From positions 217,622-281,621 of the forward strand of contig CANMDW010000003.1 in assembly GCA_947496705.1 (NCBI GenBank): a stretch of 64,000 bases of DNA. Reading direction: 5' to 3'. Source of the DNA: an uncultured Aquimarina sp. Lineage in GTDB: Bacteria > Bacteroidota > Bacteroidia > Flavobacteriales > Flavobacteriaceae. Of this stretch, positions 11,689 to 15,970 are shown piece after piece. Each line of letters starts with the position of its first letter. Position 1 is the first letter of the stretch. The position numbers and the translations under genes are program-made. The notes below the pieces were generated by a model. The model made no database searches. It saw nothing but the letters and a program-made list of their open reading frames with translations, and was not told where the DNA came from.

Positions 11689-12453
11689 TTAATTGAATTT
11701 TGACAAAAATTCCTTCGTCAAATTACTATAATCTATGGCGCCATTGGCGTTTTTATCGTATGAATAAATATCCTTGCCCTGTTCCTGTGCATTTGCCAGG
11801 GCGATATTGGTTCGAATATGCGTTTTAAAGATCATATCTTCAGAAAATTCGTCTTCGAGTGCCGATTTGACTTGTTGATTCATTTTCTTTCTATAGTCAT
11901 ATCTGGTCAACACAAAACCTAAAAGCTTTATTTGCTTATTTAGTTTCTTTACCAATTCAAAGTGATTCAAAAAACTCCTTACGCCTTTTAAAGGTAAGAA
12001 TTCTGCTTGTAGCGGTATTAACACAAAATCGCTGCTTACCAGGGCATTAATGGTTAACATTCCCATAGAAGGAGGGCAGTCTATTAATACAAAATCATAT
12101 TTTTTTAACGGTTTGATCAACTGCGAAAGGATTTGTTCGCGGCCATACACGCTTGCCAGTTCCAACTCGGCCCCCGCCAGATCCAGAGAAGAAGGGATCA
12201 GGTCTAATTCTGAAGCACTTACCATTACATCTGTGATCCTGGCCTCCTCTCCAAAAGCCTCTTTGCGCAATACCGTATAGATCGAATTTTCTATGTCATC
12301 AGTAATTCCCAAAGACTGGGTAAGATTGGCTTGCGGATCTACATCGATCAGTAATACTTTCTTGCCTTTCATCTTCAGCCCGGCTGCCAGGTTAATTGCT
12401 GTTGTGGTTTTGCCTACACCTCCTTTAAAATTTGCAATTGAGATTACTTTCAT
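11689..12453 (-). CDS. parA: ParA/Soj family ATPase, orphan (no parB in the window)
   Basis: Deviant Walker A KGGVGKTT, IDVDPQANLT, DCPPSMG, PLQAEF. Confidence 0.9.
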   Translation of the reverse strand: MKVISIANFKGGVGKTTTAINLAAGLKMKGKKVLLIDVDPQANLTQSLGITDDIENSIYTVLRKEAFGEEARITDVMVSASELDLIPSSLDLAGAELELASVYGREQILSQLIKPLKKYDFVLIDCPPSMGMLTINALVSSDFVLIPLQAEFLPLKGVRSFLNHFELVKKLNKQIKLLGFVLTRYDYRKKMNQQVKSALEDEFSEDMIFKTHIRTNIALANAQEQGKDIYSYDKNANGAIDYSNLTKEFLSKFN

Positions 12454-12543
12454 TTTAGGTTTTGCTTATTATTAACCAATATTTTCATATGTATATAAAA
12501 ATCAAGTTCAGTACTTTAACACCTCCCCGCTTTCGGCGGTATT

Positions 12544-12734
12544 CCTCAAGGCTACCGTGTGTACACATCTTTTGAATGCAGAAATGATGGATAAAAACTT
12601 GGTCAAAACACCCCTATAATCCCCTCAAGGGGATACTAATTCCCCCTTTGAAGCCTGCCTGCCCGGCTAGGCAGGGGGGTTAGGGGGATGTTTTTTGAGA
12701 TATTCTACATTTGTTGTACACGGTAGCCTTGAGG
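12544..12734. repeat. 191-bp MITE-like element with 17-bp perfect terminal inverted repeats enclosing an inverted REP pair
   Basis: cctcaaggctaccgtgt (12544-12560) and acacggtagccttgagg (12718-12734); inside are acacccct...ccctcaagggga (12608-12633) and tccccctttgaa...ggggatgtt (12641-12692). Confidence 0.6.
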
Positions 12735-12745
12735 CGGGCGTTAAT

Positions 12746-14161
12746 CTATCCTAATTCTGCATTAAAATATTCACATACTTTATCCCAAACCTCACATCCT
12801 ACCTTATTACCCAGTTTGCGTCCTTCGAGATCTCCATCTTTAAAATGAATCCCTCCATAGAGTCTTGACATGCCTGCTTCATTGGCAGCTTCCTTGATGG
12901 TTTTCCACTCCAGAGTGATCTCTTCGCACGGAGTGCAATCGGGTTCTATTTTTGAGCCTCCTTTTGGAATTGTAACAGCCTCGCCATATTTGTTACTGTC
13001 ACAAAAACACGACAACACTTCTTCGGCAGCTGCACTAAAGGTACTGTGCCCTGAAACATACTCGGCAAAAGGCGGTGTGGGGATATAGGGAATCCAATTT
13101 TCGCCCTCTATATTTTTGGTGCCCTCGCAGGGGCCTCCCCAGGCTTCAACACTTTTACCACGATACAACTCCCTGATCGCAGATATGGGCCGTACATAGT
13201 CATAAAACACCTTGCAATCCCAGGCTGCGATCCCTGCATCGAGCAAAGCATTGCTTAGTGCAAAAAACATTTTGATATCAAACGCATTTTTATAGCCATA
13301 CTTTCTGGATAAATATCTGGCCTGTCTGCAACATTGTTCGGGTGGGGTTGCCGTGCGATTGGGATCGCCATCTTTTGGTGAATCTACAAATTTGTCTTCA
13401 TGCATCCCTGCCCAGAACTCGGCAATCAATTTTTGTTCATCGGTAAGGCATGCGCTGTATTCCAGCACCATATCTGCCTGTTGTTTATACCCCCGGTCAC
13501 CACAATCGGCAGGTGATGGGGGCCTGAATTGCCCTGGCCAGGATAAGGCAAAGGGTTTTACCAACCCCCAATGGGCTGTTAAAAAAGTTTGTGGTTTGTG
13601 ATTGACCAGTTGTGGTTGCCAGCGATCTTCATATTTTAAAGGTTGTGGCGCAGGAGGGTTCACCGGGCAATAATTGCTAAAATCGGCATAACTTCCTTCT
13701 TCTAAAGTAGCATATTGATTGGAGCGATCCCCTGCCCTACATTCGATAATAAGTTTGGCAGACAGGTTGCCAATACCTGGCGCATTATCGGGTTCCAGAT
13801 TTTTATCATCGGGATCAAAATCACATTCGCACATAAAATCCCGGAACATATTTTTCTTTTCTGGCGGTAATTGCAGCCAGAATAATTCCTGCAATACGGT
13901 ATATGCTGCATGACTATATGCAGTTTCCCGATTGCGCGATGTACATTCGGGATCTGGTTGTTTAAAACGGCTTCCGGTGGTAGTACTTACCTCGTCACCA
14001 CCATCATTATAGTTGGTCCATGCATCATACATGGCCGTGTGCACCATTGCCAATGCTCTTGCAGCCACCGTAGGTGGCATGCCTACATAATGTATCGCAT
14101 CGCAGGTTAATCGGTTCCATCGGTGGGCTTTGCTGGGTGTGTAATCATTGTTTGTTGCCAT
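12746..14161 (-). CDS. Vanadium-dependent haloperoxidase family protein (PAP2 superfamily), no signal peptide
   Basis: WDCKVFYDYVRP (K, R), PPFAEYVSGHSTF (SGH), SRLYGGIHF (R, H): full vanadate/phosphate-binding set. Confidence 0.85.
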   Translation of the reverse strand: MATNNDYTPSKAHRWNRLTCDAIHYVGMPPTVAARALAMVHTAMYDAWTNYNDGGDEVSTTTGSRFKQPDPECTSRNRETAYSHAAYTVLQELFWLQLPPEKKNMFRDFMCECDFDPDDKNLEPDNAPGIGNLSAKLIIECRAGDRSNQYATLEEGSYADFSNYCPVNPPAPQPLKYEDRWQPQLVNHKPQTFLTAHWGLVKPFALSWPGQFRPPSPADCGDRGYKQQADMVLEYSACLTDEQKLIAEFWAGMHEDKFVDSPKDGDPNRTATPPEQCCRQARYLSRKYGYKNAFDIKMFFALSNALLDAGIAAWDCKVFYDYVRPISAIRELYRGKSVEAWGGPCEGTKNIEGENWIPYIPTPPFAEYVSGHSTFSAAAEEVLSCFCDSNKYGEAVTIPKGGSKIEPDCTPCEEITLEWKTIKEAANEAGMSRLYGGIHFKDGDLEGRKLGNKVGCEVWDKVCEYFNAELG

Positions 14162-14263
14162 AAATTATCAATTTTTTGTGTGCTATTTTATTATACTTCG
14201 TTATTATTTTTATTTCCTTATGCTACTCCCTGTATCTGTTATAGTCGAAACATGACATACTTG

Positions 14264-15091
14264 TCAAGTCAATACGTTTTGTATGATCGTATCTATATTG
14301 TTATGCGAGTGTTCCTCAAATTTGTTTAACCATGAGGAGGTTTCATCATGATCCATAAAACTATTAAATGCCGCAAGGGCAGTATTTTTATTTTGTAATG
14401 GCAGATCTTCTAACACTTCGGTTAGATTATCCAGGAGTCTTAAGGGTGAGTTCTTTCTTTTGCAAAGTTCGAAGGCTATTTTACCTGTTAGCTCCAGGAA
14501 TTTTAAGTAATTGCTTTTTGTGGTAATGGGTTCGGGTATTTGAAGTTTATCGAATATAGTGTTCACCATCCCACGAGTTTGTCTCCCCCATAGGCCATCG
14601 ACTAAAATTTCTTCGCCATATATGTGTTTCATCACCAATTGCACATAGAATACTTCGGATTGTGCGCCTTCGTTAAAATCAACCGGAACACTGGTATCGA
14701 TATGCCAATGGTCTTTATGATTGGGATAAAAATAATTTAATACAATGCCGAAATGTTTTCTCAGAAATGATTCTATACCCAGATAGAGTTCTTTCTGGTG
14801 AATAAAATTGAGGGTCACCAAAGATTGTTCTTTCCAAAAAACAGCATCGAGGTCAAATGCTTTGCCATGACCGTGTTGCCCGGGTTTGTTTACAAAAATC
14901 CCTGCGGTAGTGATGACCTCGGGTACCCCAAGGGGGCAATGTTCAAATACTTCTGCAAATGCTTTTTCCAGGGTTTCCAAAAATGCTTCGTCTATCAAAA
15001 AATCACGTTGGGTTCCTCTGGTACCATAGGGATGATTGGTGAGCCTTGCATAATGCAAAGGAATCCCGTTAATGTTATTTATAGTTTTCAT
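14264..15091 (-). CDS. M15/extensin-like zinc peptidase with peptidoglycan-binding-like motif (putative endolysin)
   Basis: HGHGKAFD (H-x6-D) and DHWHID (HxH) zinc ligands; DGLWGRQT motif; no signal peptide. Confidence 0.7.
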   Translation of the reverse strand: MKTINNINGIPLHYARLTNHPYGTRGTQRDFLIDEAFLETLEKAFAEVFEHCPLGVPEVITTAGIFVNKPGQHGHGKAFDLDAVFWKEQSLVTLNFIHQKELYLGIESFLRKHFGIVLNYFYPNHKDHWHIDTSVPVDFNEGAQSEVFYVQLVMKHIYGEEILVDGLWGRQTRGMVNTIFDKLQIPEPITTKSNYLKFLELTGKIAFELCKRKNSPLRLLDNLTEVLEDLPLQNKNTALAAFNSFMDHDETSSWLNKFEEHSHNNIDTIIQNVLT

Positions 15092-15114
15092 ATTATGCCG
15101 TTTACTGTTGTTTT

Positions 15115-15180
15115 CTATTCTCTTCCTATTGCCCTGGCATGATGGGCTTTGCTTGGTGTGTAATTGTCGTTTGTTGCCAT
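15115..15180 (-). pseudogene. 21-codon ORF duplicating the haloperoxidase 5' end (MATNDNYTPSKAHHARAIGRE)
   Basis: First 39 nt match the start of 12746-14161 at 34 positions (MATNDNYTPSKAH vs MATNNDYTPSKAH); TAG at 15117-15115. Confidence 0.55.
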
Positions 15181-15272
15181 GAGTTATTGTTTATTCTATA
15201 TTATTATTTATTTTTATCATCCTTGTTTCTATCTACCATATATTGTTTTATAGGTATGTTTTACAAAATGGC

Positions 15273-15610
15273 CTCCCTGCAATCTATTTATCATTGCCCG
15301 ATCTTTATAATATCCCTCCCCGTCCTACAAAGCAGCTCCCCCGCAGTACTTTTATCGACCATCGGCACTTACATTGCTCTCCCCGTCCTACAAATACCCT
15401 CCCTCGTCCTACAATTTAGTCTCCCCGAAGTGCTTTTATCGATCCCCGGTATAGTATATCCTTTCCCCGCATCTTTTTTATCGACCATCGGCACTTACAT
15501 TGCTCTCCACGTCCTACAAACATCCTTCCCCGTCCTACAATTTGGTCTCCCCGCAGTGCTTTTATCGATCCCCGGTATAGAATATCCTTTCCTCCGCATC
15601 TTTTTTATCA
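15273..15610. repeat. Array of about 16 degenerate 21-bp units with a higher-order 126-bp duplication
   Basis: The G of a CCCCG-like core falls at 15322, 15343, 15364, ... 15574 (13 units exactly 21 bp apart) plus 15279, 15300 and 15596; tcgaccatcggcacttacattgctctcc recurs at 15355 and 15481. Confidence 0.85.
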
Positions 15611-15970
15611 ATCAACAGCAAAAAATATCATGCTCTACTGATCTGGTGTTCTGTGTTTGGAGGTATATATTCTCTCTCCCGCAGAGAACGTTATATGACC
15701 CCGTGACAAATGAGAAGCAGATTGTCTATGAGAATTATTGAGTTCCAATATTGTTTTCATTTCATTTCGTTTATGTTCCAGTAATTATTCTACCATCGCT
15801 GGAATCTACTGTAAAGCACACTCTAAAGTACTCTCTCCCAACTTTCATATGCATTTCAAAAGTTTGTATTCTCCTGTGTAAAGGGCTAATTCTTTGTTAT
15901 TTCTTCTTACTCTTACCGCCACTAGTGATAGCAGGGGTCTTTCAGTAACACTTTGTTCTACATACAAGCA

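Follow-up and report, generated by a model that had tools for sequence, protein, structure and literature searches.

AlgoCIS of Algoriphagus machipongonensis (eCIS subtype Ib; Xu et al. 2022) has 18 ORFs and two DUF4157 cargo proteins (PMC8894135). Together with related Bacteroidota eCIS with DUF4157 cargo, it is of the same operon type as the locus analysed here. The window, a stretch of 64,000 nucleotides from an uncultured marine Aquimarina sp., contains an eCIS operon, the locus of a phage-tail-like toxin injector, that spans from Pvc16_N (49822) to an Afp15-like AAA+ ATPase (6914) and encodes the cap (Pvc16_N), sheath, tube, a VgrG-like spike, gp25, large baseplate proteins, a CIS tape-measure protein, DUF4157/eCIS_core cargo with disordered N-terminal leaders and the ATPase. 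Inside this operon, genes for a ParA ATPase, a vanadium-haloperoxidase (VHPO)-family protein and a LAS-type peptidase lie in the same orientation, with eCIS_core/DUF4157 cargo flanking the run on both sides, as had been noticed in the original prediction; all of them are on the minus strand. A text search for AlgoCIS (PMC8894135) returned no mention of a haloperoxidase-family or ParA gene, whereas the window has this pair between cargo and ATPase. We regard the stretch as very probably a composite within the cargo region of the Aquimarina eCIS operon, made up of a conserved VHPO-ParA pair and local rearrangements.

The VHPO-ParA pair across Bacteroidota

The VHPO-family gene (12746..14161, minus strand) is followed by the ParA gene (11689..12453, minus strand). 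The slot after ParA is occupied by two genes with a conserved 'class-B' cargo leader (9321..11679, minus strand; eCIS_core 1.5e-31), one of 341 aa without core domain and one of 423 aa with eCIS_core, and the Afp15/Pvc15-like AAA+ ATPase (6914..8227, minus strand; AAA 5.7e-28) closes the block. This order of VHPO, ParA, DUF4157 cargo with conserved leader and AAA+ ATPase is the constant one. We could assess 47 VHPO orthologs from several Bacteroidota orders (50-90% identity), and every one of them is situated in an eCIS locus, in the same slot. ParA directly follows VHPO in 42 of these 47 loci; it is missing from the other five and is therefore not indispensable to VHPO loci. The gene after ParA is 62-81% identical over its N-terminal ~130 aa in nearly all loci, and the genomes that encode the VHPO clade also have orthologs of the AAA+ ATPase (at least 72% identity).

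Only four other genomes in a 401-genome family sample encoded a VHPO ortholog (69-80% identity), in each case in the same eCIS slot, and the next matches showed at most 40% identity. Among GTDB genomes we identified 43 VHPO loci, from Aquimarina, Leptobacterium, Aggregatimonas, Galbibacter, Mariniflexile, Pseudotamlana, Psychroserpens, Pricia, Autumnicola, Roseivirgaceae, Membranihabitans, Lewinellaceae and Chitinophagales. eCIS markers were present in all 43, and ParA adjoins VHPO in 37 of the 41 that were assessable. The more distant members (50-56% identity) showed the order VHPO-ParA-eCIS_core-AAA in four of four cases, two of them with a 4-nt overlap between VHPO and ParA, which suggests coupled expression. 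No orthologs of the eCIS VHPO clade or of the ParA lineage were found outside eCIS loci in the genomes surveyed. Purifying selection on both genes is strong: dN is 0.07-0.12 with saturated dS, compared to dN of 0.13-0.16 for the AAA+ ATPase. These sequence comparisons show that VHPO and an orphan Soj-type ParA are accessory genes conserved as a pair in one eCIS lineage of Bacteroidota. We found no description of such a pair in the literature searched, and it is apparently undescribed so far.

Features and possible roles of VHPO and ParA

The 471 aa VHPO-family protein is a signal-less member of the vanadium-haloperoxidase/PAP2 family (DUF6851 1.7e-30, VCPO_2nd 2.4e-26). It shows full-length homology to bacterial VHPOs of known structure (E 2e-53 to 8e-37), namely 9l8x (2e-53), 9ptr (9e-49) and Streptomyces NapH1 and NapH3. 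The vanadate-binding motif set K-x6-RP / SGH / SR-x5-H is complete, and K317, R324, P325, S370-G371-H372, S432-R433 and H439 are invariant across 44 orthologs, which are uniformly 469-471 aa long. Since this motif set is common to haloperoxidases and PAP2 phosphatases, it would fit either chemistry and catalysis is putative. The N-terminus is ~60-90 residues shorter than in the solved bacterial VHPOs: the eCIS clade begins at the mature domain, with ~6 residues before the conserved fold. Signal or lipoprotein leaders were present in 25 of 25 non-eCIS homologs, and unlike its Flavobacteriaceae relatives the eCIS VHPO has no export signal, which has been lost in this clade. A DUF4157/eCIS_core domain and a disordered N-terminal leader are likewise absent. 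In the genomes surveyed the gene occurs only inside eCIS loci, in apparent translational linkage with ParA, rather than in a cluster for natural products. Pairwise identities of VHPO correlate moderately with those of the AAA+ ATPase (r = 0.57), so that some exchange between loci is likely.

For the orphan Soj-type ParA (254 aa, AAA_31 7e-59) the nearest solved structures are ParA/Soj proteins (1e-44 to 1e-48), and the Walker A motif KGGVGKTT is kept in 42 orthologs. Identity to the chromosomal Soj of the same genome (on C9) is only 45%, and its pairwise identities run parallel to those of the AAA+ ATPase (r = 0.88). The same ParA lineage occurs in three of three further eCIS loci without VHPO. 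In a VHPO-less eCIS locus, a Het-C-like enzyme occupies the slot upstream of ParA. Neither ParB nor a replicon or integrase accompanies VHPO-ParA in the window or in the loci examined. Orphan positioning ATPases of the ParA/MinD family include McdA (carboxysomes), PpfA/ParC (chemoreceptor arrays), TadZ and VirC1. Like these, the eCIS ParA is small and Soj-like, has a deviant Walker A motif and no ParB, and its gene is part of the operon for a large cytoplasmic protein assembly or secretion machine. It matches the McdA structure 6noo at 6e-21, but is nearest to chromosomal Soj in sequence, and no McdB-like or other partner or adaptor was identified at the loci examined. A further CbiA gene, Chitinophaga pinensis Cpin_5239, is placed between DUF4157 genes in a supplementary table (PMC8213781).

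We tentatively suggest that ParA positions or spaces cytoplasmic eCIS particles, or else an AAA+ loading hub. It would do so as an ATP-dependent, nucleoid-binding ATPase working without ParB, in the manner of McdA for carboxysomes or of TadZ/VirC1 for secretion machines. To our knowledge, positioning of eCIS particles has never been demonstrated. More speculatively, VHPO might exit the producer only with the particles at lysis, because the export signal is lost and there is no DUF4157 leader, and then act outside as a haloperoxidase. The released enzyme would bind vanadate and, close to the target, convert H2O2 and the halides of seawater into hypohalous acid; an alternative activity would be that of a PAP2-type phosphatase.

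A different role would be that of a leaderless injected effector, a haloperoxidase or a phosphatase of lipid or phospho-substrates in the target cell, with ParA as its loading or chaperone partner. The placement in the cargo region between DUF4157 toxins and the lost export signal agree with this, as do the overlap with ParA in two distant loci and the Het-C-like enzyme that fills the slot upstream of ParA in a locus lacking VHPO. We nevertheless consider it unlikely, as all recognised cargo of these loci, and also Cgo1/Cgo2 of AlgoCIS (PMC8894135), carries the type of leader that VHPO lacks with its ~6 residues before the fold. Moreover, VHPO is conserved like a core gene and unlike the variable toxins, and the ParA lineage persists without it. 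VHPO and ParA could also be passengers without a role, remnants of a plasmid or mobile element that became fixed in the ancestor of the eCIS lineage and were kept by linkage. Plasmids and mobile elements typically carry ParA genes, the cargo region around the pair is scarred and prone to recombination, and the supplement of Geller et al. 2021 gives no statistical enrichment of CbiA and PAP2 domains at eCIS loci. However, intact ORFs of uniform length with catalytic residues invariant across several orders, dN values below those of the eCIS ATPase, a fixed position with genes overlapping in places, the lack of a replicon, ParB or integrase alongside and the restriction of the orthologous groups to eCIS loci among the genomes surveyed make this extremely improbable.

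Peptidase gene, mini-ORF, repeat array and gene remnant

The original prediction had gone further and proposed a single module joining particle positioning, lysis and halogen chemistry to injection. Such a module would be one co-selected cassette, with the array as a regulatory or centromere site, the hydrolase driving lysis and release, VHPO supplying oxidative chemistry and ParA positioning the particles. The elements are indeed contiguous and co-oriented, every protein gene has some eCIS linkage elsewhere, and the phased array upstream of a ParA-containing unit recalls type Ib partition loci. Gene-neighbourhood data largely refute such a unit, which we regard as very unlikely: the hydrolase gene is absent from 43 of 43 orthologous VHPO loci and placed elsewhere where it is present, the array occurs in only 5 of ~45 loci, and only VHPO-ParA is constant. 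Co-occurrence with eCIS elsewhere, the check named in the original prediction, is strong for VHPO, holds for ParA and is partial for the hydrolase. Array and mini-ORF are not conserved parts of a system. For VHPO and ParA, the conserved eCIS slot refutes the opposite suggestion of an unrelated insertion. The repeat array, mini-ORF and peptidase gene beside VHPO-ParA are products of local rearrangement.

The hydrolase gene (14264..15091, minus strand) encodes a 275 aa protein that had been called 'M15-like'. The protein itself has no direct match in Pfam, NCBIfam or PDB sequences, but its family points to a divergent Extensin-like_C/LAS-type zinc peptidase, which remains putative. Of the 32 family members, 30 show a match to PF06904 at E<=1, the best one at 2.4e-6, and H73, D80, H125, D127, H128, H130 and DGxxGxQT are invariant in 32 homologs. 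H-x6-D, H-x-H and the PG-binding-like DGxxGxQT at the C-terminus are shared with the LAS superfamily (Extensin-like_C PF06904, VanY/M15, Streptomyces albus 1lbu). In contrast to that superfamily the protein lacks a signal peptide, and its fold match falls short of significance: Foldseek with the AF2 model (pLDDT 88.9) gave the Zn DD-peptidase 1lbu as weak top match (E = 0.4). The C-terminal half is an all-helical domain. Eight of ten close relatives (at least 66% identity) adjoin eCIS genes in varying positions, i.e. after the tape-measure gene (G106), between cargo genes (L109) or beside the ATPase (L102, L104), whereas no eCIS gene lies within 20 kb of two close homologs (G066, G071) and more distant relatives show no eCIS linkage. 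The peptidase would be an optional and mobile passenger that acts on peptidoglycan, serving as a lysin for release or as an effector against bacteria. In the window its gene is a recent insertion just upstream of VHPO.

The 21-codon mini-ORF (15115..15180, minus strand) had been noted as duplicated, and the duplication is real (direct repeats D4 and D6, alignment); it is a copied VHPO 5' end. Repeat D4 matches 45 nt at 87% between the mini-ORF and the VHPO start (14161 and downstream), together with upstream AT-rich sequence, and aligning it to the VHPO start regions of L058, L060 and the window itself showed that the mini-ORF covers the first ~14 VHPO codons and upstream sequence. It is an insertion scar, left when insertion of the peptidase gene duplicated the VHPO 5' end.

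The predicted 21-bp phased array (15284..15620, minus strand) was confirmed. Its CGGGG core holds one phase through ~16 rows of 21 bp, and TRF reported a 126-bp super-repeat (x2.1, 93%). The six best autocorrelation lags were 126, 84, 42, 21, 105 and 63, of which 126, 84, 42 and 21 exceeded the maximum of 1000 shuffles and 105 and 63 lay above the shuffle mean. The unit sequences occur nowhere else in the genome. No signal of RNA structure (z = -0.63) and no Rfam match were found for the array. Four other loci (L060, L100, L062, L066) have homologous sequence immediately in front of VHPO. The array is a non-coding DNA element whose ancestral place, in a few Aquimarina-type loci, was just upstream of the VHPO gene. 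In plasmid type Ib/II partition systems, phased arrays of direct repeats ahead of parA operons are known as centromeres or operators. The window array is alike in its ~16 direct repeats with a phase of two helical turns, in being genome-unique and in its ancestral position upstream of a ParA-containing transcription unit. Unlike in those systems, there is no gene for a centromere-binding protein, and ParA loci without array are the rule. The array is most likely a phased protein-binding site, a candidate operator or centromere-like site for the VHPO-ParA transcription unit. It would be dispensable in most loci, and as it is missing from them it is not required for the function of the pair. A 200-aa plus-strand ORF (15139-15741), which had set the predicted end of the feature at 15741, was rejected as a gene since it is an artefact of the repeats.

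Two further elements were missing from the original prediction. The spacer between VHPO and ParA (12454..12745), which in relatives ranges from a 4-nt overlap to ~40 nt, contains a genome-dispersed palindromic (REP/MITE-like) repeat with 31 matches in the own genome, a 17-nt perfect inverted repeat (I3) and an RNA fold z of -6.2; it is a local insertion. At 15614..15760 (minus strand) lies the remnant, comprising the first ~49 codons, of a 147-aa gene: in a tblastn search with the L060 ORF 8975-9418 it was 65% identical over residues 1-49 only. In that related Aquimarina locus the intact 147-aa counterpart comes after a cargo gene.

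The eCIS operon and its cargo region

The window lies on contig C3 of a genome of 6.8 Mb whose closest public relatives are Aquimarina species. Its minus strand encodes an AlgoCIS-like Bacteroidota eCIS (PMC8894135) in an operon that runs from the Pvc16_N cap gene (49822) to the gene of an Afp15-like AAA+ ATPase (8227-6914). Between these two we found two sheath-like genes, genes for gp19-type and CIS tube proteins, a VgrG-like spike, gp25, a Baseplate_J giant, a 2387-aa protein and a CIS tape-measure protein, followed by the cargo region. The parts by which an eCIS is recognised, namely sheath, tube, VgrG spike, gp25/baseplate J, tape-measure, cap (Afp16/Pvc16) and AAA+ ATPase, are all present in this one operon, with Pfam matches to Pvc16_N, Phage_sheath_1C, Phage_T4_gp19 (twice), CIS_tube, Phage_base_V/GPD, GPW_gp25, Baseplate_J, AAA and CIS_TMP (1.9e-106).

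Four genes of the cargo region encode eCIS_core (DUF4157, PF13699) at about 1e-31, with C-termini that are PT-HINT, Fic/Doc-like or unknown. Between cargo genes, and likewise on the minus strand, lie the genes for ParA (11689-12453), for a 471-aa protein of the vanadium haloperoxidase family (VHPO, 12746-14161) and for a 275-aa putative LAS-type peptidase (14264-15091), and a repeat region that reaches to about 15620. None of the three proteins has the PF13699 domain of the four neighbours, and VHPO has only about six residues before its fold, so they do not qualify as DUF4157-type cargo (EATs). They also matched no CIS structural family, which agrees with the original prediction that the cassette contains no standard Afp1-16 component; on their domain content we class them as accessory genes outside the Afp1-16 core set.

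Several other genes of this genome were noted alongside. A 223-aa protein (25787-26458) with two N-terminal hydrophobic segments is encoded directly after the tape-measure gene; it is conserved at this position in many related loci, has no family match, and might serve release as a membrane or holin-like component. The AAA+ ATPase gene has just downstream of it a gene for a TIR-domain protein (5522-6508), whose orthologs (78-82% identity) likewise lie downstream of the ATPase in L064, L066, L067 and L071, four other Aquimarina loci, at a short distance in two and at several kb in the rest. The genome has two more eCIS loci, at C3:90-110 kb and at C26:17-40 kb, which look complete and belong to other lineages; their AAA+ ATPases are 43-45% identical, and neither locus has VHPO or ParA.

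The VHPO-ParA pair

VHPO matches DUF6851 and VCPO_2nd above the gathering threshold and, in the PDB, 9l8x (2e-53), 9ptr (9e-49 over residues 31-462), NapH3 and NapH1; PHROGs gave no match. Judged from these matches, it is a true homolog of bacterial vanadium haloperoxidases with both helical-bundle domains. The full site (K-x6-R-P / S-G-H / S-R-x5-H) is present, and K317, R324, P325, S370, G371, H372, S432, R433 and H439 are invariant in 44/44 orthologs, which are 469-471 aa long. Each of the 25 non-eCIS homologs that we examined has a leader of the signal or lipoprotein type at its start, whereas the eCIS-clade protein begins about six residues before the conserved fold, and the clade therefore goes back to exported enzymes that became cytoplasmic. 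A DUF4157 leader is absent from it as well.

ParA matches AAA_31 (7e-59) and has a Walker A motif, KGGVGKTT, at residues 10-17; the solved structures closest to it are those of ParA/Soj (1e-44 to 1e-48, aligned along the full length). With a deviant Walker A, the ParA fold, a length of about 250 aa and no N-terminal HTH it corresponds to the small type Ib proteins and is, by these features, an intact small Soj-type ATPase. Scores to NCBIfam partition models were below their cutoffs, and the chromosomal Soj of the same genome (contig C9) is only 45% identical. The window and about 50 related loci contained no ParB-like gene and the phased array occurs in only 5 loci, so that a complete partition system of ParB and centromere is not indicated. 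A second ParA paralog (C11:33992-34738, 41% identity) has an apparent internal stop codon in the tblastn-guided translation and may be a pseudogene.

A VHPO-like gene of some kind occurs in 257 of 401 genomes of the family, an ortholog (69-80% identity) in only four, after which the next matches fall to 40% identity or less. All four orthologs occupy the same slot of the orthologous eCIS locus, and the genomes with AAA+ orthologs of at least 72% identity are the same as those with VHPO orthologs, plus one assembly fragment. A wider scan with one genome per GTDB species yielded 43 VHPO loci from Aquimarina, eight other Flavobacteriaceae genera, Roseivirgaceae, Membranihabitans, Lewinellaceae and Chitinophagales. 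Every one of them had eCIS markers, and the order was VHPO, ParA, DUF4157 protein with conserved leader, AAA+ ATPase. Four more distant members from a protein collection (50-56% identity) all had the same four-gene block, with a 4-nt overlap of VHPO and ParA in two. The expectation that the cassette genes accompany eCIS elsewhere thus held for VHPO, whose 47 assessable loci are all eCIS loci, and for ParA, which directly follows VHPO in 42 of the 47. A class-level search added only three genomes with the ParA lineage (57-58% identity), located among eCIS cargo genes without VHPO; since the lineage occurs in such loci, ParA is unlikely to be a VHPO-specific maturation factor. One contig with the VHPO-ParA pair (L170) is labelled Nitrospira sp.

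Compared with Aquimarina relatives, dN was 0.07-0.12 for VHPO and ParA, below that of the AAA+ ATPase (0.13-0.16), while dS was saturated. Pairwise identities followed those of the ATPase closely for ParA (r = 0.88) and less closely for VHPO (r = 0.57).

The supplementary table of Geller et al. 2021 (PMC8213781) lists a CbiA gene of Chitinophaga pinensis between DUF4157 genes, in the arrangement of the three additional ParA genomes, and in that supplement CbiA and PAP2 domains are without statistical enrichment at eCIS loci. Because CbiA/ParA and PAP2 domains are frequent throughout genomes, the pair escaped screens for enriched Pfam domains. The main texts of eCIS surveys and of the AlgoCIS paper (PMC8894135) do not mention ParA, CbiA, PAP2 or haloperoxidase, and literature text searches returned no paper that combines 'contractile injection system' with 'haloperoxidase'. 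The conserved VHPO-ParA accessory pair appears to be undescribed, the eCIS itself being an ordinary one.

The putative peptidase gene and the phased array

The 275-aa protein had no direct match in Pfam, NCBIfam, PDB sequences or PHROGs, a profile of its family found nothing relevant in the PDB, and a scan of viral contigs gave one distant match only. It has at least 120 homologs, some of them named 'Extensin-like C-terminal domain'. The Zn-ligand motifs of LAS / Peptidase MD enzymes, H-x6-D (H73, D80) and H-x-H (H128, H130), are present; H73, D80, H125, D127, H128 and H130 are invariant in 32 homologs and the DGxxGxQT motif is kept. PF06904 was matched, weakly, by 30 of the 32 (E of 1 or less, best 2.4e-6). 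The AF2 model (pLDDT 88.9) had the Zn DD-peptidase 1lbu as top Foldseek match, non-significant at E = 0.4 and with a TM of 0.20-0.26. A putative LAS/M15-like peptidoglycan peptidase is a reasonable but not proven assignment. EAT6, an eCIS toxin with an L,D-transpeptidase domain, is a precedent for toxins active on peptidoglycan (PMC8213781).

For this hydrolase the predicted association with eCIS held in part. Close relatives are often eCIS neighbours: they lie after the tape-measure gene in a Pricia genome (G106), between cargo genes in a locus that also has VHPO (L109), beside the ATPase in L102, L104 and L110, after three cargo genes in L101 and, as a fragment, beside a cargo array in genome G119. 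The gene is missing from all 43 orthologous VHPO loci. Searches by tblastn with the proteins of the window found no eCIS gene within 20 kb of close relatives in genomes G066 and G071 and no eCIS marker in about 26 metagenomic loci (identity of 64% or less, each at least 8.7 kb), a search that very divergent eCIS genes near distant homologs could escape. On this distribution we regard the peptidase gene as a mobile, optional passenger of eCIS cargo regions that was recruited from a wider family.

The 21-bp phased array of the original prediction is real, and the plus-strand ORF at 15139-15741, which set the end of the predicted cassette, is a by-product of the repeats. About 16 units (15284-15620) have a CGGGG core in constant phase and form a 126-bp super-repeat; the autocorrelation lags 126, 84, 42 and 21, four of the six best, exceeded the highest shuffle value. 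We rejected a dispersed regulon motif, since no unit recurs elsewhere in the genome, and a structured RNA, since folding was no better than in shuffles (z = -0.63); an Rfam scan of 11000-17000 gave nothing above noise. Nor is the array a general feature of ParA loci, as TRF on 43 loci returned only coding repeats in cargo leaders. Scans with sigma-70 promoter and terminator models, which are ill-suited to Bacteroidota promoters as regards sigma-70, were not above shuffles.

In four other loci (L060, L100, L062 and L066) VHPO has repeat sequence homologous to the array immediately upstream, and the ancestral order was therefore array-VHPO; the other loci lack the array, and 10-200 nt separate VHPO from the gene before it. 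The mini-ORF at 15115-15180 is a second copy of the VHPO gene's first ~14 codons together with the sequence upstream of them. From this comparison, the peptidase gene was inserted between array and VHPO in this strain, the insertion duplicating the VHPO start. A truncated remnant of a 147-aa gene (15614-15760) and a nested palindromic REP/MITE-like repeat inserted between VHPO and ParA (12500-12745; 31 genome matches, corresponding to about 30 partial copies, a very stable hairpin with fold z = -6.2) fit a recombination-prone junction. With the peptidase absent from 43/43 orthologous loci and the array confined to five, the four-part cassette is not a unit, contrary to what had been predicted. 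The most plausible reading of the array is a phased site for protein binding that serves the VHPO-ParA unit and that most loci can do without. Between L060:9419-10000 and L100:9419-10000, array region and VHPO start are nearly identical, in two isolates labelled Aquimarina sp. and Cellulophaga sp. in one study, which points to recent transfer or to a labelling or binning issue.

Possible roles of the pair

ParA-type ATPases such as McdA, TadZ and VirC1 are analogues for a positioning role. ParA has no ParB, has nucleoid-binding Soj as its nearest relative and evolves in step with the loading ATPase. By this analogy its likeliest role, at somewhat less than even odds, would be to position or space eCIS particles or a loading hub on the nucleoid. 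Lacking both an export signal and a cargo leader, VHPO would leave the cell only with particles at lysis. Haloperoxidases of this type bind vanadate and form hypohalous acids, and we suggest tentatively that in seawater phosphate would be exchanged for vanadate and hypohalous acids would be made near the target.

Two rival readings concern VHPO. It might be an injected effector that needs no leader; it lies between cargo genes, although it lacks their eCIS_core domain. It might also be a PAP2-type phosphatase, since the vanadate/phosphate-binding motif set is common to VHPOs and acid phosphatases. The most far-reaching proposal, which we consider rather doubtful, is that two leaderless proteins outside the structural set are needed by a large Bacteroidota eCIS lineage: a nucleoid-riding ParA that would organise particles, or the hub for cargo loading, inside the producer, and a signal-less VHPO that would be released or delivered with the particles and add halogenating oxidative chemistry.

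If true, this would be the first link of ParA-type positioning, or of haloperoxidase chemistry, to a contractile injection system, and no eCIS model includes VHPO or ParA. A ParA dedicated to an injection particle would lengthen the list of ParA-positioned protein cargos, and a haloperoxidase made in the cytoplasm and leaving the cell only with particles would be a new way to deploy halogenating chemistry. eCIS are under development as programmable particles for protein delivery, and little is known of their accessory biology (assembly site, loading, release); a pair that matches the loading ATPase in conservation and is confined to eCIS loci suggests unrecognised life-cycle steps in marine Bacteroidota eCIS. 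With two small genes, clear orthologs and a genetic toolset in a related genus, the pair is a directly testable system.

Some neighbours of ParA were also noted. The 341-aa gene at 10654-11679 has the conserved class-B cargo leader without eCIS_core domain, duplicates in tandem the leader of the gene that follows (9321-10592) and has an extremely basic, Lys/Arg-rich C-terminus; it starts 9 nt after ParA and could be a ParA adaptor or DNA binder. In L107, an eCIS locus that has this ParA lineage and no VHPO, a Het-C-like protein (phospholipase C/nuclease-fold) is encoded just upstream of ParA (8497-9972) and a YkuD L,D-transpeptidase-domain protein after the tape-measure gene (7074-7799). Giant PKD-repeat proteins (2226-2475 aa) are encoded between ParA and the ATPase in L107 and in another locus, L106.
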